Positions 4,243 to 50,289 of a DNA stretch of 64,000 bases are shown here, one piece after another (the stretch's first letter is position 1; each line of letters opens with the position of its first letter). The position numbers and the translations under genes were made by a program. Under the pieces are notes generated by a model. It did not search any database and was not told the DNA's origin. It was given only the letters and a program-made list of their open reading frames with translations. Where the stretch lies: the NCBI GenBank assembly GCA_951804945.1, contig OX638152.1, positions 44,640,001 through 44,704,000 on the forward strand, in the 5' to 3' direction. The stretch is from Podarcis cretensis. Lineage: Eukaryota.

Positions 4243-4668
4243 TATTGGAAGCATGGTCCTCAGCATCATATTACAATAGATTCTGAATAGGGGCACGCCA
4301 TATATCATTCAGAGTCATTAACACACTGTTACATGAAATCTAAGTTATCCTCCCTCAGGCAGAAACTGTAGGTACACGCAATATGATCTTCACAGTTGCC
4401 TAGGTAGGAAAGCAACAGTGGGTGTAGATAGTTGTTCAACCAGTTGCATGTTTGTGGTTTGGCAGTACTGTTGATGAAACAGTAATATATATGTTGTAGC
4501 TAAAATGAGTTCACTGAGGAACGTACATAACTGCTGATGATGTGCATACGCATGGACAATGTGCACAAACTGATAGCATAGCCATGAGGTTTCACAGGTA
4601 TCCCTGCCAACTGGCATAGACCATAAGTGTTGATGGAGAATATGCACAGTGGTATAATGTCAATTAGT

Positions 4669-4951
4669 GGGACGCGGGTGGCGCTGTGGGTAAAACCTCA
4701 GTGCCTAGGACTTGCCGATCGTATGGTCAGCGGTTCGAATCCCCGCGGCGGGGTGCGCTCCCGTCGTTCGGTCCCAGCGCCTGCCAACCTAGCAGTTCTG
4801 CGCTGGCTCGCCAGATGCAGCTTGTCACGCTGGCCATGTGACCCGGAAGTGTCTGCGGACAGCGCTGGCTCCCGGCCTCTAGAGTGAGATGAGCGCACAA
4901 CCCTAGAGTCTGGCAAGATTGGCCCGTATGGGCAGGGGTACCTTTACTTTT
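4669..4951 (+). mobile_element. Sauria SINE with internal deletion
   Basis: gggacgcgggtggcgctgtggg head, B-box ggttcgaatccc, acctttac tail; TSD tataatgtcaatt (4653-4665, 4952-4964). Confidence 0.93.
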
Positions 4952-7597
4952 TATAATGTCAATTGGCAACTACTCAAAGTACTTATTCTCTACTTGGCAA
5001 CTATGGGATGAATCCAAAAGAACATGAAGCACTAGCAGTTTGCTCATAGCTTTGTAGTATGGAACTTTTTGCACTTCAGCCATTAAAGGTGGTTTTGTGA
5101 ATGTGTGGAGAATTTAAACTGCAAAGTTATTGAGAATATTAGGTAACAATGTACAGTGGTTATGCAAGAACTTTTGTCTCTGGCCTTGCACACTTGGCGC
5201 TTGGAAGCTTGGCCAGATACAAATGCGGCCCTCAGTCTGAAAGAGGATCTCCACTTTCGGCTTCTGCTAACTGCAGAGAACATCAATGAATCTCTAGCAA
5301 TGCTGTCCCACTAAATCAAAACATTTTTACATAAGCAGAAGCGGCTTCCACTTACAGAAGTGTACCTTTTGATCCAAGCCTGCACACACTGTCTGACAAT
5401 ATCCCCATCCCCTCATACTACGGTTTGCTGTGTTATTCAATATGGTAAGTTCAGGATGAAGGGGCAACAGCTCCATGTGGACTCTCTGGGTGGAAGAAGT
5501 AAACACCTGTAAGCTTATCATATTTAAAATGTACCGGAGCTACAGCTACGACGAACATAGTCGTGACCAAGTTTTCAAAGAAAAGAAAAGTTGGGCAAAG
5601 AAGATTAGAGATTAACAGCCAGCATGGTTATAGAATTGAGATATTACAAACACTTGCAGATTTCTCTTTCCAGTTCAGATGTTTAGGGTAGCGGAAATGC
5701 TTCTAATGCTCAGTTAAATAGAATTCTGCGTTTGAAAAATTCTTTGTATAGTACTTGGATTTAAATCACAGGGCATTTCAGACCTGCTACTATGTTCAAA
5801 GGAGCTACTGTGAAAGGATTTAAGAAAGATATTGCTACTGAGAAGTAAATATAGCAAGCATTCTTGTGACTGGATTTGAAATGAAAGAGACTTTTCCTGC
5901 TTAAGCAGGAATCTCATCAGCTGAAACACGAAAAGATACTTATTGTCTGTAATATGGCTTGTTTTGTAGATGGTATAATTTATATGCTGGATGTGCAATT
6001 AAGGTTTCTCTAGTAAAAGCACATTCAAGTTCAAATAAAATAGTTAACTAGTGCAAAACGTTATTTATAGCTACTATCCCATTGATTAAAAATCTAAAAA
6101 CCAAATTTTACTTCAGTGCCTGATATTCATGACTTGCATTACCATTGTTCAGTGAGTGCACCCCATCCATAAGGATGAAAGAACAATTGGGAATTTCTAA
6201 ACAAAAAACAAAACAAAAAACCTGATGCCATCTTAAAACAAAGAGACAACGATACATTCCTACATTGCTTCATCTATGCAACAGATGGACAAATGTATCA
6301 AATCAGTTAAATGCAAATGAGTGCTTTGGAGAATTAGGCAAGGACCAAATAAAGGATAGAATGATTCTCTCTCTCTCATACGCACACAGAGAAATTGGGA
6401 GGGGGGGTAATCCATCATAGGGGATGTACAGTTTTCTAGTGAGGTATCTTTAAGCCTATATTGTTATCATTAACAAGGCACAGAAACACGAAAGAGAGCA
6501 CCAGCTGGCCTCCATTGTGGGTCCCACACTATAGTATTGGCTCAAAGGTCTGACTTTTCATTTCTAATCTTTGTATATCGTAGTGTTGTTTTATTGCTAT
6601 GGCTGATGGTTGACACAAATAAAGATTCATTCATTCATTCTCTGGAAATGTTACAGTGACCAGCCATATGCCCGTGGAAATCCTCTGAGCAGCACCTGAG
6701 TGCAATAGCACTAGCACTGCTTGTGGTTCCCAGCAGATGGTATGCAGACGCACACTGTCCCCAACACTGGAGGGAAAGCATAGCTTATCCTCCATGATCT
6801 AAATGGCCTTGAGGTGTCATTACTTTGAAATTTGTGTAGTTGTGTATTTTGCAGATTTTTGAAATTGTGCACAAGATACAAATTGTTGGTACCTTATTAT
6901 TGCATGGTCTGTGCTTGACTCCTTTTACGACAAATAATAAAATAGTGCAATAACTTATTTCAAGCCACAGTTCAAAAAGAACAGAAACCCTTGGCCAATT
7001 CACACATTTTTCTGTCAGTGACCAGCCCTAGGAAACCCTGGACATGCATACGTGTAGTAGACCAACAGGAACTCTCCATGTTGGCTGGGGTTGATGAAAG
7101 TTGTAGTTCAGAACATCTAGAGGGCACCAACTGGTGAAGGCTGATGTAGGTCAGCATTAACATGTGAAACAAACAATTGTGCATATGGCTGCTGGAAATT
7201 CCTGCCTTTGCAGCAGACAGGAAAAAAGGAATCAAAAAGCTGTAATCATGTTAATTGCTGCCGTCCATTTCCATGATTTCCTGGTTTGCATTGTCCATGG
7301 CAAAGAATGGCCAAGGAAGACTGACACTGATTGGAGACAATATTATGGCATCGGCCCTGAGCTTGTTGTTAAAGTGCATTCCTTTTTGGGCACCAAAGGC
7401 TTAATGTAATCCACTCAGACAGAATAGCTAATCATGGAATATGTCTTGCAACCTGTTTTTAAAGCTACAAAATAATATTCAGCATTGCTCAGATATAGAA
7501 CTTTACTGCTGTGCTTCTCCAGAGCTCCTTTAGACCTGTAAATGCTCAATTACCGGATGCATTTTTAAAAAGGTGAATTGCAGGGGAAATAGTACCC

Positions 7598-7729
7598 AGA
7601 ATCATAAAGTTGGAAGGGAACCTGAGGATCATCTAGTTAAACACCCTGAAATTCAGGAATATGAAGCAGGATCAAACCTGCAAACTTGGCATTATCAGCA
7701 CCACACTCTAACCAACTGAGCTATCCAGA
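7598..7729 (-). mobile_element. tRNA-headed SINE with CR1-type tail
   Basis: Minus strand reads ctggatagctcagttggttagagtgtggtgctgataat (A-box-like head) and ends in a CR1-like ttccaactttatgattct tail. Confidence 0.7.
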
Positions 7730-8544
7730 CTATGCCTCTAAGAAACAGAATACTGTGATTAATTAACAAGTGAAGAGGTCACCTTCCGGTAGCCAGCCAG
7801 ACCTGTGGAGATCTGAAGGAAACCAGCACAAATATTTTCAGCAATTACAGTTGTGGGCAGAAATGTTACTAAGGAGCAGCCTACAACTAGCTGTCGTAGG
7901 CGAGAAACTAACAGAAACAGGAAGGAAGGGAAAACAGGAATATCCAAATAAATTAATCTTCATGAGATGCTGTCGCTGTCCAAGGTAAGATTGAAAAATA
8001 AACAACTGCAAGAGAAAAAGTGAGATTCATATTGGTAATTTCTGAGGTGCTAATATTCGTAAGAAGGGTGGGAGAAGCTGGCAGAATCAATCAGAATAAG
8101 TCTCAGCACATATGCAGGAGGAGGAATCGTTCAGTTTGAAGCAAGTAAGCAGACAGAGGAAAGTTCATCTGGAGGGGAGATGGATTGCAGGGGAGAGGGG
8201 CAAACTGCATGTGATGGACATTACTGAGATACTTCATTTCATTGTAAAACTTAATAAAATGGAATTGTAGGAAGCAGAACTTGAGATCAGACCAGGGACT
8301 GCTTAAACCTTTTCCTTTCTGCCATTTGCTCCAAATCACACCTACTCATAGTCTACAAGATTTCCTTTTTACAACACTGAGGGGAAAGAAGGTGACTTAA
8401 ATAGATAGCTACTTCTCATTCCAACAGAATTTGCTATGGGCTGTATTCAGCCCATTGCCTGTATAAGTCAGGGCCCTGGAGTCTGCTACAATTGTGTGTT
8501 GGAAGCACCCAAACAATGTTATACAATGTTATTATATACATCTG

Positions 8545-9070
8545 GAGACACAGGTGGTGCTATGGTCTAAACCAGTGTTCCCCAACCTTGGGCCTCCAGC
8601 TGTTTTTGGACTACAACTCCCATCATCCCTCGCTAGCAAGACCAGTGGAATTGGTCCAAAAACAATTTTGGAATTGTAGTCCAAAAACAGCTGGAGGCCC
8701 AAGGTTGGGGAACACTGGTCTAAACTATTGAGCCTCTTGGGCTTGCTGGTCAGCAGTTTGAATTCGCATGAAAGAGTGAGCTCCCATTGCTCTGTCCCAT
8801 CTTCTGCCAACCTAGCAGTTTGATAGCACACCAGTGCAAGTAGATAAATAGATACCACTGCAGCAGGAAGATAAACAGCATTTCTGTGTGCTCTGACACT
8901 TGTCACAATGTTCCATTGCACCAGAAGTGGTTTAGTCATGCTGGTCATATGACCCAGAAAGCTGTCTGTGGACAAACACTGGCTCCCTCGGCCTGAAGCG
9001 AGATGAACGCCGCACCCCATAGTCGCCTTTGACTGAACTGAACCATCCAAAGGTCATTTACTTTTACCTT
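8545..9070 (+). mobile_element. Sauria SINE interrupted by a hAT MITE
   Basis: Sauria body (caacctagcagtt...gtgcaagtagataaata...) and acctttt tail; TSD tacatctggaga at 8537-8548 and 9071-9082. Confidence 0.9.
8573..8717. mobile_element. Young hAT (Charlie-like) MITE nested in the SINE head
   Basis: 44-bp perfect TIR CAGTGTTCCCCAACCTTGGGCCTCCAGCTGTTTTTGGACTACAA; perfect 8-bp TSD gtctaaac (8565-8572, 8718-8725). Confidence 0.95.
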
Positions 9071-12000
9071 TACATCTGGAGAGAGATACATTGCTTGTAC
9101 TTCCATTAAAATCTTGGACCCTAGGCTACCATTTCTGCCAACCTAAGAATCCTATATTTTGTGCTGTAGTTCACCTGAATTTAAATGACAAAATATGAAC
9201 AATGATTTGGTTGAGAAACTATACCTGTACACCCTAATAAACCTACTGATCTTGAGGTCTGTGAGCCTTGGCAGCTCTGGAAAGAGGAGAGAAAACCTGT
9301 TTTGGGCTACTGACCAACTTTCTGCCAGAGATCACTGCTTAAGGGACATTATGACAGAGTGAGAGTCTGTTGGCACAGAATGGAGACCGCTTTGTGTGAG
9401 AGACAGAGAATGAGAAGTGGGGATGGGGAATGCTGCTAAAGCTGTTTGGTTGCTTCAGTCTCTTAGATGTCCTGTTTTTCTTACCCAGGTATTTGGTTCA
9501 ACATTCTGATTGTCATCTCTAATGGAGTTTAGTTTTGCTTCTTTTATGATTAAGTTGTGAAGTTGTTTGTGTTATTTATTGGACTTGGGCTTTTTATGGA
9601 TTCTGTAATTTTTGTATATTCTTGTTCTTTTTCTGTGTAATTTTAAATATTGTTTCATTACATTGTCCCCCAGTGAAGAGCTGGTTATTAATACTTAGAA
9701 ACAAGCAAGTAAGCAAGCAAACAAACAAAACATTGTTCAAGATCTGTATTAAAATACTAGGATTTCACCAAGTATCTTTCTGGGTTTTAAATCAAATAGC
9801 ACCATCAGTAACTAATGTGAATAAGAAGAAAAATCATGTGTGGCAGTGCTGTGACATTAAGGCAACCAGTCTGTCAAACAGGCACATTTATTAAGACGAG
9901 CTCGGTTATCTGTTGCAGCACAGCCACAGTGATCTACTGGGTAGCCGTAGTTGTCAGTTGGTGACAGTGAGATCATAAAGTAACTTGATCAAATGTTGCT
10001 AAGTCTAAGATCACATTTACAAAAGAATAATATATGCAAAGCTTTTGTTCCTTCCTAAGCTGGTGACACATTCCTGGAATCAAACTTTACATTTTGTTAA
10101 AAGAATAGTATATTGGTTGAACATATTCTTGCATGAATATACAAAATAATTGCTAGTGCTGTGTGCTGGATTCACCTGAGTCCGGAGCCAGAAAAATTGG
10201 CATATTCAGAGGGACTTGGGTGCGGGCTCAGTTGAGTTGGGTGCGGACAGCCACAGGTGCTACAGGTCAGGATTGTATGGCCCAGAGTGATCCTTCACTG
10301 TCTGGTAGTGGAACATCAGACAGGAAAGAGAAGCAGACACCTGGCAGCGAAGCTCTGCTAAAAGAGCTACCCTCAATGCTCGATGGGTTATCCAGAACAA
10401 GGTAGGAGCCTCTTTTCAGACTCTCCTGTGTGGTGCAGGCTGTCCAGCTGCAAGTGCCTTCGCTGCAGAAAAGCTGCTTTGAAACAAGCACTATGCATGA
10501 GGCTGGAACGGCACCTCCAAGTTAATTTGGGATGGGATACCAGGGAGGAGAGATTGAGGCCATGGGGCAGACTGGGGTCTGTGCACAGCCCTGATAAATA
10601 TTTGGCACTAACGGGCAAAACGTGATGAGTCAAACTACACTCAAGTCCCCTCTTTGTGTTACTTATGTGAAAGGGAGGCCATACACCCCCCGTGGAACTG
10701 GACACATTGCCCAGCCCTTCCTGGACATATTTGCATTAGTGTGGCAAAGGATGGACGCATGATCATTCCGGTGTCCCATCTGCACTGAGCCAGCAGCTGC
10801 TCACTGTAAAATGGTGCTGTGGTGAAAACTTTTTCTCGTCTCGAAGGGATAAAATTTGCTCGCTTTAAGTGGGTGAAAAGTTTCCTAGCAACCCAGATAG
10901 TGATGGAGGCGTTGTGGGATGGTTTTTGCTGTTCATAAGCTAGCTTTTGAAATTAAGAAAGAAATAAAACTTTGTTAGAGAATACCTTCATTTAAAAGGT
11001 CAGAGCTCAGGAAATGCCAGCCATTGCTTGCCTGCCCTCTCCATCTCTATTTTTCCTCCCAAACAGCAATAGACAAACGGTTTAATTGAATACCTGGGCA
11101 ATTTAATGAGAACACTTATGTGCCGACAAGCTGGTTAATAAGAGTGGGCAGTCAGAATTGAATATGTTTAGAGAACAAATGGTAGTTTTTAACCCTGCCT
11201 GTTCAATTCCAAATTCCAGGCTACTCCCCTCAGGGTTTTCCAATCAACTGGGAAAGAATCCAATAACATATGTGAAATCGTTCCCTTCCACTTAACACTG
11301 TTTACCCATCCCATCACCTGCTTATTGAATACGGCTAATATATATCCTATCTGGATTTTGCAGTCAGTCACTTTTTCTGAGTTACTGATCTGCCCCCTCC
11401 CCATTCTTCCGCAGCACTGATTTTTTTTTTTAACATTTTTTTTTTTTACTTCTTTGTCATTGAGAAGGTCAACTTCTTTCCTGCAGCACGGCTCATGTTC
11501 AGTTATGTACAGTTTTAAGCATTTCTGTCTTGTACTTTTCACCCCCTGGAGGAATATTGCATAAGTTTTCATGAGTGCTTTCTGACCAAAAAAAAAAGCA
11601 CCCAGACTCAAAAATACTGATATAAGAGGTTTTGGGGATCTTGGTGAGTAATACTCATAACCTCTGAAGTCAGAGTTGCACGGCTTAACTTCGGCTCTTG
11701 GGTGTAACTGGAAAGAGACTTACGGCTTTAGTGGCATTTCTAGTACATAATATTAGAGAACAAAGAAAAGAATGTCACAAGAAAAGTTCCGAACAACAGC
11801 ATGAGATGTTTTATTTCCCTCAAAAAGTCCCCACCACCACCACCTTCATAGCAACTACAGCACTACCTAAGTTCTCCATCAGATGTTTTCTGCTTTGCTG
11901 ATGTATTTGGAACCACAACGGAATCCTATAATTGAAGATAAGAGTTTGCAGTGTGCTTTTCTTCCATTTGTAAATCCTTAAATCGTGTTGCAAAATGAAA

Positions 12001-20318: not shown

Positions 20319-20701
20319 GGGATGTGGATGGCGCTGTGGTCTAAACCACTGAGCCTCTTGGGCTTGCCAGTCAGAAGGTCAGCAGTTTGAATCCCCGCGA
20401 TAGGGTGAGATCCCATTGCTCTGTCCCAACTCCAGCCAACCAAGCACTTTGATGGCACACCAGTGCAAGTAGATAAATAGGTACCGCTGCAGCAGGAAGG
20501 TAAATGGCATTTCTGTGTGCTCTGGTTTCCATCACGGTGTCCTGTTGCACCAGAAGCGGTTTAGTCATGCTGGCCCCATGGGCCGGAAAGCTGTTTGTGG
20601 ACAAACGCCAGCTCCCTCAGCCTGAAAGCTAGATGAGCGCCGCAACCCCAGAGTCGCCTTTGACTGGACTTAACTGTCCAGGGGTCCTTTACCTTTACCT
20701 T
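20319..20701 (+). mobile_element. Sauria SINE, full length
   Basis: Head, body and (acctttt) tail; TSD ta(c/t)attctggg. Confidence 0.93.
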
Positions 20702-21263
20702 TATATTCTGGGTAAGCCTGACAGAACATGGAGGGACTGTGCCTAAGATGGTGCTGAAAATATGACATGTGCGAAGTTCTAACCAAATCAAATGTAATGC
20801 AGCTAAGTATAGTTGCCAGACCTTTTAACCTATGTGCAACAAGCAGGATCTCGACAGAGTCTGGCGATCAGGCTAGGATTTTCATAGATTAATAAAAATC
20901 TGCCTTTTCCTCTGATAAAATTTCAGGATGGAAATTTCCTTGTCCACTGTAACATTTAATGTCTCAGAACTGCACTCTGCCAGGACAGAAACTCTAAACC
21001 CTGAAATAAATTGATATCATTATAAACACTATTCAGCAACCTTATTTCCTAGCACATGGCTTATGGTTTAATTTGCCAAATATGATTCTTGTTTTAGCTT
21101 TCTAAACATCTGCAGATTCAGATCTAATGAAATAGAAGATCCATCGAAGATGCAAAAGAAATAAATGCCATGCCATTGATTGCTTTATGAAAACAACTTC
21201 GTGAGGGGGTGGGTGGAAATGGGGGTTCTCTATGATAATATGAATCCAAGGAAATAAATATTA

Positions 21264-26457: not shown

Positions 26458-27622
26458 TTATTATTTATACCCCGCCCATCTGGCTGGGCCTCCCCAGCCA
26501 CTCTGGGCGGCTTCCAAAAGAATATTAAAATACTATGATACATCAAACATTAAAAGCATCCCTGAACAGGGCTGCCTTCAGATGTCTTCTAAAAGTCTGG
26601 TAGTTGTTGTTCTCTTTGACATCTGGTGGGAGGGCATTCCACAAGGAGGGCGCCACTACCGAGAAGGCCCTCTGCCTGGTTCCCTGTAACTTGGCTTCTC
26701 GCAGTGAGGGAACCGCCAGAAGGCCCTTGGTGCTGGACCTCAGTGTCCGGGTAGAACGATGGGGGTGGAGACGCTCCTTCAGGTATACTGGACCGAGGCC
26801 GTTTAGGGCTTTAAAGGTCAGCACCAACACTTTGAATTGTGCTCGGAAACGTACTGGGAGCCAATGTAGGTCTTTCAAGACCGGTGTTATATGGTCTCGG
26901 TGGCCGCTCCCTGTCACCAGTCTGGCTGCTGCGTTCTGGATTAGTTGTAGTTTCCGGGTCACCTTCAAAGGTAGCCCCACGTAGAGTGCATTGCAGTAAT
27001 CCAAGCGGGAGATAACCAGAGCATGCACCACTCTGGCGAGGCAGTCCACAGGCAGATAGGGTCTCAGCCTGCGTACCAGATGGAGCTGGTACACAGCTGC
27101 CCTGGACACGGATTTAACCTGTGCCTCCATGGACAGCTGTGAGTCCAAAATGACTCCCAGGCTGCGCACCTGGTCCTTCAGGGGCACAGTTACCCCATTC
27201 AGGACCAGGGAGTCCTCCACACCTGCCCGCCTCCTGTCCCCCAGAAACAGTACTTCTGTCTTGTCAGGATTCAATCTCAATCTGTTAGCCGCCATCCATC
27301 CTCCAACCGCCTCCAGACACTCACACAGGACCTTCACCGCCTTCACTGGTTCTGATTTGAAAGAGAGGTAGAGCTGGGTATCATCCACATACTGATGAAC
27401 ACCCAGCCCAAACCCGCTGATGATCTCTCCCAGCGGCTGCATGTAAATGTTGAAAAGCATGGGGGAGAGGACAGAACCCTGAGGCACCCCACAAGTGAGA
27501 GCCCAGGGCTCTGAACACTCATCCCCCACCACCACTTTCTGAACACGGCCCAGGAGGAAGGAGCGGAACCACTGTATGACAGTGCCCCCAGCTCCCAGCC
27601 CCTCAAGACGGTCCAGAAGGAT
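26409..27622 (-). mobile_element. Young 5'-truncated L2 LINE
   Basis: (ATT)n tail at 26409-26456, short 3' UTR, open RT frame up to the truncation point. Confidence 0.93.
26543..27622 (-). CDS. L2 ORF2 reverse transcriptase, C-terminal part (partial, no true start)
   Basis: GVPQGSVLSPMLFNIY, QYVDDTQLY, LNPDKTE, SRLDYCN, HITPVLKDLHWLP motifs; frame stays open upstream of the listed ORF (ILLDRLEGLG...QWFRSFL). Confidence 0.9.
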   Translation of the reverse strand: MLLDRLEGLGAGGTVIQWFRSFLLGRVQKVVVGDECSEPWALTCGVPQGSVLSPMLFNIYMQPLGEIISGFGLGVHQYVDDTQLYLSFKSEPVKAVKVLCECLEAVGGWMAANRLRLNPDKTEVLFLGDRRRAGVEDSLVLNGVTVPLKDQVRSLGVILDSQLSMEAQVKSVSRAAVYQLHLVRRLRPYLPVDCLARVVHALVISRLDYCNALYVGLPLKVTRKLQLIQNAAARLVTGSGHRDHITPVLKDLHWLPVRFRAQFKVLVLTFKALNGLGPVYLKERLHPHRSTRTLRSSTKGLLAVPSLREAKLQGTRQRAFSVVAPSLWNALPPDVKENNNYQTFRRHLKAALFRDAFNV

Positions 27623-27659
27623 CTTCTAACTGCCCCCCAACCTGAAACCCCTCTGTAGC

Positions 27660-29920: not shown

Positions 29921-30947
29921 ATATCTCCCTTCACATTTAAAAGGTCCTCCTGACGTCAAAGATGCTGGATTTAAGCCACTCAACAGATAATAAGCTTGTG
30001 TTCATCATTTCCCTGATAACTGAGAAAGTCTCTCATTAATCATTAAATGTGTGTATATTTATTTTTGTACTCATAGAGGTGGGGGGTTCATCTTTAATTG
30101 CTCAGGTACCAAGTAATGACAGTTCTTTTTGTCCCCTTGCTGTGGGCTAATTAGCTATTGGAATAAGATATAGGAATGATTGATTTGTGAGATTCTTTTT
30201 TTAAAAAAAATTGTCATTGTGAGCAGGCATTCTCAATTCTTCAGACTTAACAACATACTATTTACTTTTTATACTTTCTTGGGAGCACTAGCAAAATGCT
30301 AGGTGAGGATATTCCTTTCTTACAAAAGGAAGAGGTGCTAAAAGCAACAGTTGGCAACATAATGCAGTAAAATCTGTTAATAGAGTACAATTCTTTGGGG
30401 GAAATGCTACATTTAATTCCTAGGATCTTTATCGCAGATACTGTCTATTCGCAAGTTTTATTGACAGCCATCTGATACATTTATTACTTGTGGCATATTA
30501 ATAGTGTTATGAGCATAGCTCCCTAGGTTTATATATTCTAAGAAACTCATATTGGAATGATGTGACTGAAAGGATTTTCTTCTGAGATAACCCTTATAGT
30601 AATTCTTCAATATATTGTTTCCAGATTTTAACTTGAAAGCATCAGACATCACATGCTTGTGTCAAAATGTTGAAGAGTTATCAGTGTTCTGTTTTTCTCT
30701 AAAAATCTGAGGTGGGCTCTAGGAATAAACACTAGGAACAAGTCAACAATAACATTAAAGCACATCCAAAGCACATTTTTCACCCTCAAAGAATTCTGGG
30801 CACTGTATTTACCCCTCAAAGAGTTATAATTCCCAGCAGCACTTAACAAACAGCAGCACCTATAATTATTTGACGGTGTAAAATATATAGTGTTTATGTG
30901 ACCTAAGATTACAATAAATGTAAAGTAACAATGCAATGTTAGAATTA

Positions 30948-31321
30948 TAGGTAAAAGGTAAAGGTAAAGGACCCCTGGATGGTTAAATCCAGTCAAAGGC
31001 AACTATGGGTGTGGCAGTCATCTCGCTTTTCAGGCCAAGGGAGCCAGCGTTTGTCCACAGACAGCTTTCCGGGTCATTTGGTCACCATGACTAAACCGCT
31101 TCTGGCGCAACAGGAAACCAGAGCACACGGAAATGCCATTTACCTTCCCGCTGCAGTGGTACCTATTTATCCACTTGCACTGGCGTGCTTTCAGATTGCT
31201 AGGTTGGCAGGAGCTGGAACAGAGCAACGGGAGCTCACCCCATCACGGGGAATTGAACTGCCGACCTGCCTATCAGCAAGCCCAAGAGGCTCAGTGGTTT
31301 AGACCACAGCGCCACCCGTTT
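30948..31321 (-). mobile_element. Sauria SINE, full length
   Basis: (aaaggt)n tail on plus strand; TSD tgttagaatta (30937-30947, 31322-31332). Confidence 0.93.
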
Positions 31322-31739
31322 TGTTAGAATTAAATAACTACATAGGCATATCTACATAGATGTATGCACCATTGAACTTAATTGAACTTACTTCACACAA
31401 ACAGGTATAGAGTTCTGTTGTAGAGTTAATAAAAATAGGAAGTTTACCTGAGAGGCAAGAGCATAGAATGAAACCTAGGATTGCATAGAGACAGAGGAGG
31501 CCTGACAGAAGAAGGAAGCAATTGAACATATTTTATTCATTTATTTATTTAGAAGCAATCGAACATATCACAGTCAGCTTTTGCATTGAAAGATGCATGA
31601 GTAACCAGCAACAAAATGCAGCCATTTATCCTCATCTTTTAGGAGGAGTACTCCTGTTCAGGGAGTCAGCCAAACAGTCAAGCCCTCCTCAAGGATGCCA
31701 CAGTTTGTAAGGGCCTGAAGCAGAACATTATATTCCAAC

Positions 31740-39748: not shown

Positions 39749-41118
39749 AATATTGACACAAAAACATTGCACATAGCTAAAAGAATGAAAGTTTACTACA
39801 TCCCCTCCCTCCACGTGGTCTCTCTCTCTCTCCCCACCTCTCTTCTCCCCCAACCTTATACTGTATCAAAATATTAAAGTCTCATATCAAATATAACTGA
39901 TCTGTAGAAATGATTTTATGATCTGAAAATAGAGATGGTGTATGTACTTTTCAACCCTGGATTTTTTTTTAATAAAAACTTTTTTTAAAAAAAGAATTAG
40001 GTTGAACTACCTGATAGAGTTCTTGTAAGGATGAATACAACATACCAAACTAATTTATTTGTACATTAAAAGTGCTGCTGCTGTTACTACTACTACTGGA
40101 GAAATAAAAATAATCGGTCATTAAAAGCAATTTGGAAATACAGTGAATTGTGTGCAAAACATATAGCCTGTCCATGTGTATGAACAATCAAGTTGGTTTT
40201 GAAAACATTATAAACAGTCTGCTTTGTTCCCTTCTAAAATATGTGGGAACATTCCTCTACTGTATCTGAAAAATAACAGATTTTTTTTTCCTGTTATAAA
40301 AAGTTTAGAACAAGTCAGCTGAGGGCCAAGATACTCCATCTGTCTTATGATAATACCATTCTTAGGATGCTCACTTGCATTATAATATGAAACGATGCTC
40401 TTCTGATACAGTTATCGTTGGATAGATTGGCCGTCAGATTTCAGATCTCATTTGACAGGGTGTGATCAAAAGAAATAGTTAGCATGGGAAATGGAAAATA
40501 AGAGGCAATTTGGGGTGATTTCAGCATGTTGGGACCCCAGCCAAATAAAAGGTAGTAGAGGCAGAGAGAAATCCTACAGGGGAGGGGACTTTAAAATGGA
40601 GAAACTGCCATATTCAGAGCCCCACTTCATTGGTTCCAACAGGGGAAAAGATGGTGGAGTGCTATTGTTCCCTTTTATCTCCTTGCCACGTCTGCTTCCT
40701 TTTAAAAACAATGCATATCTCCACTGGATAGCAGGAAGTATGCTAGCAGAGGGTTGGCATACTTATTCACCACTCCACCATCTGGTTCTAAGGCATGCTA
40801 GGGGAACAGCAGGGTTTGGAGTCCAACCTGCCCCCAGAACACCACCCTTTTGCCCTCTCCGCCAGCAGAACACTGACAGTGTAGAAGCAACACCAACATG
40901 CCTTTCTGCAGCGGCGCTCTCACTGCCTGTGGAGAGGGAGAGCCACAAAATCCTATACCCTCCAAGATGCCCTCCCAGGGACCATAGAATTGTGTTCTAA
41001 AGATCATACTGAAATGGTTTCATTTATCTCAAAATGTCATTCCACTTATTGAAGGTAAACCATATCTATATTCCTGGAATTAATCCATTATGCCCATGGT
41101 CAACTACTTAAACACTTA

Positions 41119-41313
41119 CAGATAGGTAGCCGTGTTGGTCTGCCATAGTCAAAACAAAAAAAATTCCTTCCAGTAGCACCTTAAAGACCAACTAAGTTAG
41201 TTCTTGGTATGAGCTTTCGTATCTGAAGAAGTGTGCATGCACACGAAAGCTCATACCAAGAACTAACTTAGTTGGTCTTTAAGGTGCTACTGGAAGGAAT
41301 TTTTTTTTGTTTT
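41119..41313. mobile_element. Penelope-like element, inverted pseudo-LTR insertion
   Basis: ggtagccgtgttggtctg end motif; ~70-bp near-perfect inverted repeat (41151-41220 vs 41243-41313); 14-bp TSD tacttaaacactta (41105-41118, 41314-41327). Confidence 0.88.
41219..41256 (+). ncRNA. Minimal type I hammerhead ribozyme motif
   Basis: GUAU-CUGAAGA-A-GUGUGC-AU-GCACAC-GAAA-GC-U-C-AUAC: stem I GUAU/AUAC, core CUGANGA and GAAA, stem II, palindromic AGCU stem III. Confidence 0.8.
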
Positions 41314-41575
41314 TACTTAAACACTTAAAATTTAAAATCCATTTCATGAGTAATGAAATGAGCATGTCCTAGGAATGTCACAAGAGCTTGGCCAGCTGTG
41401 AGAAGTTAGGGCTGCGACCCTATATAGCTACTTACTTTGGGGGAAAGTCTTCTTTAATGTAATGGAACTGCCTTCTGAGTAGACATGCATAGGGTTTCAT
41501 TTTAATTTTATCATGGATTATTATCATCTCGGCTGATCTTATAAATTTGCCCTTGTTTTTCTTCCTGTGTATTTA

Positions 41576-41939
41576 AAGGTAAAAGGTAAAGGTACCCCTG
41601 CCCGTACGGGCCAGTCTTGACAGACTCTGGGGTTGTGCGCCCATCTCACTTAAGAGGCCAGGGGCCAGCGCTGTCCGGAGACACTTCCAGGTCACGTGGC
41701 CAGCGTGACAAAGCTGCATCTGGCGAGCCAGAGCTGCACACGGAAACGCCGTTTACCTTCCCGCTGGTAAGCGGTCCCTATTTATCTACTTGCACCCGGA
41801 GGTGCTTTCGAACTGCTAGGTTGGCAGGCGCTGGGACCGAGCAGCGGGAGCGCACCCCGCCGCAGGGATTCGAACCGCCGACCTTTCGATCGGCAAGCCC
41901 TAGGCGCTGAGGCTTTAACCCACAGTGCCACCTGCGTCC
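41576..41939 (-). mobile_element. Sauria SINE, young and CpG-rich
   Basis: Full head and tail; TSD cctgtgtattta (41564-41575, 41940-41951). Confidence 0.95.
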
Positions 41940-43245: not shown

Positions 43246-43469
43246 TTCTTCATATAGGTGTTTGTTTTCCAAATTTTATGCATACCTGAAACATGATGCT
43301 ACTCTTATGCATTTTTAAATACAACTTTATTCCCTAAAATGTTGGTATTATCTATTACTTCCTCTTCTGTTTCCATAAAGAGATACTTTTCTTTCAATTG
43401 TGGTTTGTATCTTTACCAGTTCACATAACTTGCATGTGCTCCTTAGGTTGGATTGTCTTTTCAACTGTT

Positions 43470-43842
43470 AAAGGTAAAGGTAAAGGTACCCCTGCCCGTA
43501 CGGGCCAGTCTTGACAGACTCTGGGGTTGTGCGCCCATCTCACTTAAGAGGCCAGGGGCCAGCGCTGTCCGGAGACACTTCCAGGTCACGTGGCCAGCGT
43601 GACATCGCTGCTCTGGCCAGAGCCAGAGCCAGAGCCAGAGCCACACACGGAAACGCCGTTTACCTTCCCGCTGGTAAGCGGTCCCTATTTATCTACTTGC
43701 ACCTGGAGGTGCTTTCGAACTGCTAGGTTGGCAGGCGCTGGGACCGAGCAGCGGGAGCGCACCCCGCCGCAGGGATTCGAACCGCCGACCTTTCGATCGG
43801 CAAGCCCTAGGAGCTGAGGCTTTAACCCACAGCGCCACCTGC
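43470..43842 (-). mobile_element. Sauria SINE, near-identical to 41576-41939
   Basis: Same subfamily sequence; internal (CCAGAG)4; no TSD found. Confidence 0.93.
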
Positions 43843-45670: not shown

Positions 45671-47611
45671 TAACACAAAGCTATCTATGGCTATGATTCT
45701 AACCATTTCTCCTCAGAAGTATGTCCCATTGAATTCAATGGGGCTTATTCTCAGGTAAGTGAGGCTAGGATTTCAGCTGATCTTGCTAGCTCGATTTCAC
45801 AATTCTGTATATAAATGTCATCCTGTCTTGTTTAGCGTACCATTGATAGCTTGCTTTTTGTGTCTTGAATTCTTTGAATTATTCCTTCAGTCAGTGTAAT
45901 GCCATTTAACCACGAATAAGTCATGCTTTATTGTAACATTTTATTTATATCATAAATGTATATTTCAATAAGAAAATGGTTTTGTGTGTGTGCTGAAACA
46001 TAATGCCCGAGCCAACTTATGTTATAAATATTTGTAGTAAACATGATTTTGTGTCTGACAGCATTAAAACTCTTTTTGACCCAATGTGAAAGAAACAAAA
46101 AATCACAGTGAGAAGCAGATTAAGGCTGCAATCCTAACACTACATACTTGGGAGTAAACCCAGTTTTAAAGAAAATACACTATAAAATTACGGTAGATAT
46201 AAAAGGCTACAGTTCTTGTTCATTAAAAAAAAAATGGTGGGGGACCTACCTTGTGTTTTCCTACAATTGTCAGAATTTTTTGTTTTGTTTTTTGCTTTCC
46301 TGGCACAATGTTTAAAGTGGCTATTTGAAAAAGACAGAACACACAGTGGAATCTGTGAAAAAAAGTATTGAAGGCATCTGCTTAATTTGCATTTGTACTT
46401 TTCCATACCAGCTAATGTTCAAAAACAAAACAAAACATTTTTCTCACTCGCTGTCAAACATAAAAAAAAACCATTAGTTTTTAATTCCATTGTGTTTGTC
46501 TTCTGATTACAAGGAAACAATGCTTAAATCAAGAGCTCTCAGCACTCCTGTTTCTAATGCATGAAGTCTTACAAAGCCACGGTTTCATGGAGTATAGATG
46601 CTTAGAACAGATAACTTTCCCCAAGGAGTCATTATACTTTTTCCCTCTTTCACTTTTAAGAAGCAAAGGAAATATCATACTGCATAACTAACTACTGATC
46701 ACATTCATACTGTTTACATAATTAAAAATGACTGTCATTTACCTTGCTTAATATGGATTTCTAAACAGTTATGACTACATTATATAGCACTGACATAAAC
46801 CCATGCTGAATTTTTTAAAACCTTTAAAGTTTAAAGGAATGAGCATTCAAAGTAATCAACACTTCCACTTTCTCAAAACTAATTTTAACATGCCAGCTTG
46901 TATGGCTCCAATCTCTTATTTTTGTACCATGCTATAAGTACAGTGGATACAATAAAGGCACATACCTTGAAAAAGAAGGAAAAAAATACATGTTTCTTCT
47001 GTGCAACCTGCATTCCTTAAGGTGGTTCCATAATTGCCCACTCCTTATTGCATGCAAAGATGGATGAAGGTTTGGTCACAGATAACTAGACTTTTTGCCA
47101 AAACTTATCAACCAAGGAATTCAAACTGAATTGCAGTTCCGGCTGTTTTGATCCCTGCTTTGAAAGTTCTGGACATCACCAAGTCACTTACACTTTTGAA
47201 AGATCAGAGAGTTTTATAGCCGCTGCTGTTAATTAGCATGGTGGATACTTGACCATTTTCACATGTCTCCTGTGTCATCAGATTCCATGATATTTGGTGA
47301 CATGATTCAGCAATCTAGAATAAAATACACAGATGAAAGAAACAAAGAAAATCCAATTTAAGAATAAAAAGCCAATGAGATTAGTAATAGTAATAGTAAT
47401 AATAAGATTGTGTAACCTAGGTTGTAGCTGACAGATTCCTTGGTCTCTGTCATGCAATCATGAGGGTACCTGCAGCAGGATTCTCACATGCCCTGGTCAG
47501 ATGATCTGCAGAAGCATTATGAACAGTAGAATTAAGGCTTTGAACATCTTGACCTCTTGGTGATCAGGAGGGACTAGTGGCAAAGATTAACATTGCCCTA
47601 AACTTTCACAA

Positions 47612-47948
47612 GGGACATGAGTGGTGCTGTGGGTTAAACCACAGAGCCTAGAAGGTCGGTGGTTCGAATCCCTGCAACGGGGTGAGCTCCTGTTGATCGG
47701 TCCCTGCTCATGCCAACCTAGCAGTTCGAAAGCACGTCAAAGTGCAAGTAGATAAATAGGTACTGCTCCGGCGGGAAGGTAAACAGCATTTCCATGCACT
47801 GCTCTGGTTCGCCAGAAGCAGCTTAGTCATGCTGGCCACATGACCCGGAAGCTGTACGCCAGCTCCCTCGACCAATAAAGCGATATGAGCGCCGCAACCC
47901 CAGAGTCAGTCACGACTGGACCTAATGGTCAGGGGTCCCTTTACCTTT
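47612..47948 (+). mobile_element. Sauria SINE (different subfamily)
   Basis: Head, B-box ggttcgaatccc, cctttacctttt tail; TSD taaactttcaca (47599-47610, 47949-47960). Confidence 0.95.
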
Positions 47949-48814
47949 TAAACTTTCACATCCTGCTGCTTAGACAGAAGCTTTGGAATAGAGATAAATT
48001 TCCCTAAACACTGTGTGGTGAACCTAGGAATAGCCTTCCAGCTGCTTTGGAATACAGCTCCCAAAACAACCTCAGCCAGCATGACCAGTGGTTAGGTTGA
48101 TGGAAGCTGTAGTCCAAAACACCCTGGAAGTCCAAATATCTCAAGGATTGCTTCTCCCCATATGAACCAATCCATACCCCGTGATGATCATCTTGAGGTC
48201 CTAAGGGTGGCAACACAAGAACAGGCCTTTTCTGTGGTGGCTCCCCATTTGAATGTGCTCCCCAAGGAGGCTTGTTCACATCATCTGACATCTGCACAAG
48301 ATGCAACCTATGAGCAACTGCATGACTGCTACTTGCGTACCTATGTTCCTTCACTTTTCCTTGGTGTGGTGGCAGACCTTCTGGCTGCATCTATATGAGA
48401 TGGCTAATAGTACCTTTGCACCAGTAAAAGTAATTTGGTTATTATTCTCAGTCATTTATTTCTTGATACTCAGTAAGACTGGGCCAAAAATATTTATGTA
48501 TCACACTCCCCATAATGGTGATTACCGCTTCCACCTCTAGTAAGTCTTACGGGCCTACACACTTATGCCAATCCGACCTCATACTGTGTTTTTGAAGTAG
48601 TCTCAGTCTCTGCACAACAAGGATGAGTTCCTGTGTTCTTCCTGAGATGAGGATAATGCACAATATCTCACCTCACAGTCCAAACGTGTTACATCAAAGA
48701 ATATATCCCACCAAGTTCAGAGAGGGTCTGGGCCATGGTGGCCACAATTTTTGGCAGACAAGCTATGCCAGCCAAATCATGCAGTCCATAATGGCAGACT
48801 CTCTGCATGAGATC

Positions 48815-49622: not shown

Positions 49623-49801
49623 TGTTTTGAAATGCACAGTATGAGTCTGCTTGCAGCTGACCTCTTTCTTAAGCATTCAGCCTGACTTATATGCCCAAAA
49701 TATGTGAGGGGGTTAGACGATGAGGGCTATTTATTTAACATTCATTTTTATTTGTTTGCATGGAGTTTAAATGACATTGTGTCAAGTACTACCTTCTAGT
49801 C

Positions 49802-49937
49802 CAGGCATCCCCAACCTTTGGCCCTCCAGATGTTTTGAACTACAGTTCCCATCATCCCTGACCACTGGTCCTGTTAGCTAGGGATCGTGGGAGTTGTAGG
49901 CCAAAACATCTGGAGGGCCGCATGTTGGGGGTGCCTG
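49802..49937. mobile_element. hAT (Charlie-like) MITE
   Basis: caggcatccccaac...gttgggggtgcctg long inverted arms; perfect TSD ttctagtc (49794-49801, 49938-49945). Confidence 0.92.
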
Positions 49938-50289
49938 TTCTAGTCCATTTTACCATCACTTTCCTTAACACAAAAAGTTCAGTTTAGAGTGGGAAATGCA
50001 TTTGTTATTCCATCTGAACAGTGGTTGAACATGGTTCAGCTGGTCCTAAGGGTGTCAAGTCAACTTTAATAGCACAACCTGAATCTGCTGGTATGTGATT
50101 GAATCCCAACCCCAAATGATGAATATCTGGAAGCTCCCGGCATAATTTGTAACCATTTTAGATGCCAAATCTGTGACCTGCTAATGACATAACCTACATC
50201 TATTTTAAGAATCCAATTGGTCAGTTTCAACATTTTTCTGTACTTGGTCACCAGTCTATATTCTACAATATGATGCATTCACCACTGAG

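Follow-up and report, generated by a model that had tools for sequence, protein, structure and literature searches.

A 195-bp head-to-head Penelope-like insertion, probably recent, with a minimal hammerhead predicted to be masked by its own inverted arm

The minimal type I hammerhead at positions 41219-41256 (plus strand) forms the centre of a 195-bp insertion, 41119-41313, in which two copies of the same element end are joined head to head. With good confidence we regard the insertion as a recent Penelope-like stub whose hammerhead is predicted to be switched off by pairing with the arm upstream of it. By its layout and motif it is almost certainly a truncated endonuclease-positive (EN+) Penelope-like insertion with a minimal hammerhead, and likely an ordinary inactive copy of an already-known kind of element. 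All positions refer to the window, which is the whole 64-kb stretch of DNA that was analysed, and comparisons with published work draw on the available parts of the cited papers.

Re-reading the sequence gave the letters and coordinates of the motif exactly as the first-pass annotation had them. On the plus strand, stem I consists of GTAT (41219-41222) and ATAC (41253-41256). Between them lie the core box CTGAAGA (41223-41229) followed by A 41230, the palindromic stem II GTGTGCATGCACAC (41231-41244), the second core box GAAA (41245-41248), the stem III remnant, which is the palindrome AGCT (41248-41251), and the cut-site base C 41252, with the predicted cut between 41252 and 41253. Stem II had been read as 6 bp, which would force a 2-nt loop; the stem is present, and it is predicted to fold with 5 bp closed by a loop of 4 nt. 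The A before stem II, earlier pointed out as extra, is there as described and is no oddity, since the published consensus is CUGANGAH (PMC4209133, available part).

Minimal hammerheads (min-HHRs) are characterised in the available part of PMC4209133 by a stem I of 3-5 bp, a G-C pair opening stem II and a palindromic stem III remnant. All of these are found here, and so are both core boxes, CUGANGA(H) and GAAA, an NUH cut site and the base left unpaired ahead of stem II. In the consensus of Fig. S3 of that paper (Cervera and De la Pena 2014), the elements shared with our motif are CUGANGAH, G10.1-C11.1, GAAAN, the palindromic 15.2-16.2 positions, NUH and the short stem I. The turtle (Chrysemys) row of the figure is close, agreeing with our motif in the core and in G C at stem III, and its stem I is GCAU/AUGC compared with GUAU/AUAC here, one pair being changed on both sides; among the rows of the figure that were compared, none is from a lizard. 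Two features differ from the min-HHRs described in the available part of the paper: stem II is here a perfect 14-nt palindrome, and the motif has its own antisense arm directly upstream. The earlier assignment to the minimal type I hammerheads of Penelope-like elements is borne out by both the consensus fit and the layout of the insertion.

A custom minimal-hammerhead descriptor, run over both strands of the window, matched at 41219-41256 only, and just one of 200 dinucleotide shuffles of the window produced any match. A search with hammerhead models had been proposed as a check, and Rfam gave no hammerhead match at gathering score across the whole window. Within 41050-41400, none of 26 weak Rfam matches was a hammerhead, and 41219-41262 searched alone gave no hammerhead match either; the Rfam models may be unable to score variants lacking stem III. 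A scan for the core pattern found no loci in a metagenome collection, and prokaryote genomes gave none. Shorter patterns hit three metagenome and six viral loci, all nine limited to 16-24 nt, and these were judged to be chance matches.

No variant at or above 5% was seen in the four sequencing runs described below at 41231-41243, and the stem II palindrome may be able to pair two element RNAs. An ATG sits in loop II, and the frame that it opens (41237-41266, plus strand) ends in this copy at a stop codon at 41264-41266, of which position 41264 is variable in about 38% of the family depth in run X3. The reading frame of the Anolis Poseidon element begins at stem II (PMC11167929, available part).

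While the first-pass annotation recognised the hammerhead itself, it missed the 70-nt inverted repeat that covers the 3' half of the motif. The forward arm (41219-41313, plus strand) is, by its sequence and by the contigs of the family, the 3' end of a pseudo-LTR with the hammerhead and without the tail. The inverted arm (41151-41220, minus strand) is truncated at its 5' end, has no CUGA core and is antisense to 41243-41313 on the plus strand. In the orientation of the hammerhead, the right arm extends from stem I as far as 41313, and the left arm is reversed and begins at the base of stem II. The arms are 70 and 71 nt long over their shared part, and their sole difference is one T within a run of T. 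At the head-to-head junction they overlap by two nucleotides, GT at 41219-41220, which fit both arms. The left arm alone continues into a 32-nt tail (41119-41150, minus strand), so that each arm has private sequence: the tail on the left and 22-24 nt of the ribozyme on the right. One-sided tails are also described in the available parts of PMC8557442 and PMC11167929, and the length here, 32 nt, or 35 with a 3-nt overlap, is inside the 30-40 bp given for EN+ elements. An inverted, 5'-truncated copy joined head to head is a further hallmark of EN+ Penelope-like insertions.

The insertion is flanked by an exact 14-bp target-site duplication, TACTTAAACACTTA, with its left copy at 41105-41118 and its right copy at 41314-41327, and this word occurs at 41105 and 41314 only within the window. 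The DNA beside the insertion has an AT content of 66% and 79%, compared with 59% for the window. Contigs of the family fit from 41116 onwards, with 85, 96, 97 and 15 loose ends before 41116 in the four runs, so the last three bases of the left duplication (41116-41118, minus strand) match the end of the family tail. It is possible that this 3-nt match reflects pairing between primer and template.

Exact pairs of 14-mers lying 100-400 bases apart occur at four places in the window (ten overlapping pairs), and proof of the duplication was therefore needed from outside. We aligned the contigs of four public runs (X3, X5, X11 and X15, out of 23 matching runs) to 40880-41560. Record 24 of run X5 (organism B) joins 41104 to 41314 and thereby skips 209 bases, that is 195 + 14, and record 1 of run X11 (organism F) joins 41117 to 41328, skipping 210. 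Both are empty sites with a single copy of the 14-bp word, and their flanks differ from the window at 6 of 472 (X5) and 8 of 471 positions (X11). A duplication combined with an empty site elsewhere is again what is found for EN+ Penelope-like insertions. In run X3 (organism A, a different sample from that of the best-matching run), a contig aligned rightward from 41314 leaves 32 letters over, and the depth in the bin 41064-41086 is 36.1, compared with 36.07 expected from the contigs starting at 41073. The empty-site joint is absent from the joints listed for X3, and a further contig of depth 8 begins at 41073. From the leftover letters and the depth we infer an empty allele, and hence polymorphism within the species label: a second individual of the same label probably carries the empty site. 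The earlier suggestion of a young insertion is thus supported by the perfect duplication and by the empty site in two related species, and the insertion is probably both young and polymorphic within its species.

These joints also bear on whether the palindrome could be an artefact of assembly or library preparation, which we consider highly improbable. Assemblies do struggle with long palindromes, the filled site is spanned by none of the contigs listed, and the best-matching run may be the source of the window itself. An artefact would nevertheless have to come with a perfect 14-bp duplication and with empty sites that skip precisely the insertion and one copy of the duplication. Furthermore, all 101 sampled words are present in run X1, and similar junctions are found in other copies in three runs.

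The insertion belongs to a dispersed multi-copy family. In the four runs, 8873, 8904, 25788 and 1008 contigs matched, nearly all of them on the insertion; they amount to thousands of contigs, many with long unique flanks, and the pattern holds in all four runs. The run with 1008 contigs (X15) is RNA by guess and from another species, and it leaves the unique flanks of the locus uncovered. No RNA run is listed as matching the locus itself, and neither result bears on expression. Dividing the summed depth by that of the flanks yields about 86,000 or, on the assumption that 31 overlapping short contigs count each place, about 2,800. These ratios are not copy numbers, and the size of the family is stated only as thousands. 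The fit of the family contigs begins at 41219, so the GT of stem I belongs to the element and did not arise by chance at the junction. No reverse transcriptase or GIY-YIG gene is attached to the 195-bp copy, and its membership among Penelope-like elements therefore rests on layout and motif.

Among the joints listed, 15 of 211, twelve link a place in the left arm to 41219-41234 and three link it to 41275-41284. The twelve are what would be expected of further head-to-head copies truncated at different points. Seven of the 15 joints listed fall at 41219, as do nine of ten in the table rows with at most five letters between. We rejected this pile-up as proof that 5' ends cluster just before stem I, because the family sequence in the reference stops there and because a contig of 31 letters can reveal a copy only if the start of that copy is no more than about 10 bases from 41219.

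Variants at or above 5% affect 3 of the 39 sites in 41219-41257, compared with 6 of 23 in the downstream sequence (p = 0.066), a difference that does not establish selection on the motif. Positions 41244 and 41245, a CpG, vary at 11-16% in the three DNA-like runs, and C 41252 is replaced by T at 8-14%; the turtle row of Fig. S3 in the available part of PMC4209133 also has U there. No compensatory pair was seen among the family variants of 41219-41257 in the four runs. Conservation of the motif across the family is therefore only suggestive.

Before 41219, the loose ends of X11 and X15 have an identical pyrimidine-rich word of 8 letters in the same position, and both finish with AG and then T just before stem I. 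In three of the four runs the loose ends finish with AGT, at an agreement of only 0.35-0.45. Together the pyrimidine-rich word and AGT resemble a 3' splice site beside helix I, which is a lead only; a 3' splice site next to helix I is described for Penelope of Drosophila virilis in the available part of PMC4209133.

The first-pass annotation had proposed a possibly active ribozyme that could cut a host pre-mRNA if transcribed in sense, and had noted that motifs of this class are proposed to work as dimers. Taken alone, the 38-mer is predicted to form both stems, with probabilities of 0.64-0.73 for stem I and 0.97-0.98 for stem II; all folding figures given here are equilibrium predictions without proteins. 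In its own sequence context the hammerhead fold is not predicted to form: it lies 23.7 kcal/mol above the ensemble in all four contexts that begin at or before 41180 and extend to at least 41313. The upstream arm is predicted to sequester the GAAA box, the cut site and the 3' strand of stem I. In an RNA ending at 41252, A 41247 of the GAAA box is already paired with the arm at a predicted probability of 0.996. As the upstream arm is made first and would capture GAAA before the cut site is complete, no kinetic window for cleavage is predicted. At least 7 bases of the left arm before 41219 are predicted to suffice for the arm to win. An RNA starting at 41214-41219 would escape it, and with the downstream sequence of the element its stem I would still be only about 0.01 probable. 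The minus strand, which has no CUGA core, is predicted to fold as one long hairpin at -121.4 kcal/mol. Read-through RNA of either strand would thus fold into a hairpin of about 70 bp and not into a ribozyme, and on these folding predictions this copy very probably does not cleave in such RNA.

Working as a dimer within this locus would need a partner, and no second core is present within the 64 kb. For two isolated copies, the double hammerhead with swapped stem III is predicted at -11.1 kcal/mol, compared with -28.0 kcal/mol for a duplex of the stem II palindromes. In the available part of PMC4209133, such motifs were inactive as monomers in vitro and showed low activity as dimers. The Anolis motif was inactive without the protein of the element, and RNA-seq reads ending at its cut site were not found, according to the available part of PMC11167929.

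Host-gene domains were sought with Pfam in all 378 stop-to-stop frames of at least 55 aa in the whole window and in 42 crude exon candidates, and none was found in either set; the sole Pfam match overall is a LINE reverse transcriptase. This result leaves room for exons that are short or non-coding. None of the 2-kb bins of the window qualifies as a CpG island, the highest ratio being 0.48. The predicted masking, the missing second core and the lack of any host exon found together make the cutting of a host pre-mRNA unlikely. That this copy is an active ribozyme which cuts a plus-strand host pre-mRNA or lncRNA, alone or with family RNA in trans, strikes us as very unlikely. It would agree with the intact core and stems and the predicted fold of the isolated 38-mer, and partner RNAs may abound, judging from the 1008 contigs in the presumed RNA run of the other species. 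Against this stand the antisense arm, which is transcribed first and predicted to capture the GAAA box and the cut site, the more stable stem II duplex, the published absence of cleavage by monomers and little cleavage by dimers, and the absence of host-gene domains above the cut-off in the window.

How the two arms came to be joined can be approached from their private sequences. Each arm contains sequence that is absent from the other, so neither is a plain fold-back copy of its partner. We lean towards priming from both target ends. The endonuclease would have cleaved the two strands of an AT-rich target with a 14-nt stagger, and each 3' end so released would have served as primer for copying uncleaved element RNA. 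Synthesis from the top strand would have begun at the far start site, produced the tail and the inverted arm and halted at the base of stem II. Synthesis from the bottom strand would have begun 32 nt further in, at the near start site, and passed through the ribozyme as far as stem I, yielding the arm without a tail. The two products, templated by one RNA or two, would then have been joined via the 2-nt overlap. The Anolis protein does cut and extend both target strands and prefers AT-rich DNA, and its reverse transcription, templated by uncleaved RNA, begins at two internal sites, one at each limit of the tail (PMC11167929, available part).

A doubtful alternative for the same silent element is that a single cDNA folded back and primed itself, after which the endonuclease trimmed the product. 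The AC at the 3' end of the cDNA would pair with the GT at the base of stem II, and the trimming would leave the one-sided tail. The 2-nt overlap is compatible with this, the arms are identical except for one T, self-priming is how inverted junctions are interpreted in the available part of PMC3846280, and the available part of PMC8557442 attributes the tail to endonuclease resolution. Fold-back, however, starts from a strand that lacks the tail which its copy has, and the sequence logic then requires an extra trimming step. In addition, the 3-nt match at the tail end suits direct priming by the target, and in vitro the two start sites account for the tail (PMC11167929, available part).

In a literature search with subscription papers largely outside it, we found no statement of two-end priming for Penelope-like elements, and 'twin priming' appeared solely in a human TE review. 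In L1 twin priming, both target ends prime cDNA, and the product is an inversion with a flanking duplication and microhomology at its joint. The parts of an L1 inversion are copied from neighbouring stretches of the RNA that do not overlap, whereas both arms of our insertion copy the same 70 nt.

Rotifer insertions with an inverted pseudo-LTR and duplications of 8-10 bp are described by Arkhipova et al. 2013 (PMC3846280, available part), and Craig et al. 2021 (PMC8557442, available part) give a tail of 30-40 bp at one end; a one-sided tail of 31 bp is part of the description in PMC3846280/PMC8557442. The insertion studied here shares with these truncated EN+ insertions the head-to-head arms, the short duplication and the one-sided tail. 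It differs from them in having no reading frame, a total length of 195 bp and a duplication of 14 bp instead of the 8-10 bp of rotifers. Poseidon of Anolis carolinensis (Frangieh et al. 2024, PMC11167929, available part) is likewise a squamate element with a hammerhead near the tail, an AT-rich target, two reverse transcription start sites bounding the tail and an uncleaved RNA template, a likeness that need not mean membership of the same family. Poseidon was primed without homology, in contrast to the 3-nt match at the tail end here, and the motifs of our element had no match in three supplements of PMC11167929, as far as these were available.

Non-LTR retrozymes (PMC7229834 and bioRxiv 10.64898/2026.07.22.740005, available parts) are also short, non-coding and derived from the ends of Penelope-like elements, with a type I hammerhead. 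They are tandem head-to-tail units with at least two hammerheads, whereas we see a single inverted stub with one core; with no tandem array and one core in the window, the retrozyme assignment was rejected. Long inverted arms would also suit a MITE (a non-autonomous DNA transposon) or a microRNA precursor in which the hammerhead is incidental, and Rfam gives weak matches to microRNA hairpins, for example mir-559 at 62.7 bits. All of these matches are below their gathering scores (95 bits for mir-559) and arise by pairing alone. As for a MITE, a 32-nt non-repeated tail keeps the repeats from reaching the left end, the duplication measures 14 bp and copies differ from one another at the centre. 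We rejected the MITE, which would have terminal inverted repeats at both ends and a fixed short duplication, and hold either of the two identities to be hardly credible.

As a ribozyme, this copy carries little weight, being one of thousands of copies and predicted to be masked. It advises caution, as an intact hammerhead in a Penelope-like stub is no guide to activity until the flanking inverted arm has been folded along with it. The insertion is clean and datable: its empty sites are known, its two ends and its junction can be placed to the single base, and it is usable as a presence/absence marker. Its value is modest, in that it preserves a trace of reverse transcription that was likely primed from both DNA ends, and it bears on the origin of inverted ends and one-sided tails in Penelope-like elements. 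Tentatively, such micro-palindromes might be the footprint of a mode of reverse transcription found only in Penelope-like elements, in which the two cut DNA ends, using two start sites, copy one and the same stretch of 70 nt from uncleaved RNA. The antisense arm would then disarm the insertion's own hammerhead from birth and would yield dsRNA of about 70 bp against the end of every active element. If this were true, a family that still inserts in this lineage of lizards and is polymorphic within a species would make both the in vivo mechanism and any small-RNA feedback testable.

Other repeats are found in the window. Two young SINE copies, 41573-41935 and 43468-43842, lie 1.9 kb apart and are 98-99% alike in ungapped blocks. 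Both are reversed and end in (ACCTTT)n like Sauria SINEs, from which the host is probably a squamate, in line with the lizard origin given by the first-pass annotation. Older relatives are present at about 4668-4961, 8716-9079, 20326-20711, 30945-31326 and 47607-47960. Two related palindromic elements of about 150-160 bp, 8566-8727 and 49796-49943, are 72% alike, the former being flanked by an exact 8-bp repeat; they resemble hAT-type MITEs. The reverse transcriptase domain mentioned above (PF00078, E 1.5e-17) lies in a 360-codon open frame on the minus strand, 26546-27625, which corresponds to the 3' portion of a LINE. At 7656-7730 (minus strand) ARAGORN predicts a tRNA-Ile (anticodon GAT), which in a vertebrate is more likely to be a tRNA-derived repeat or pseudogene.
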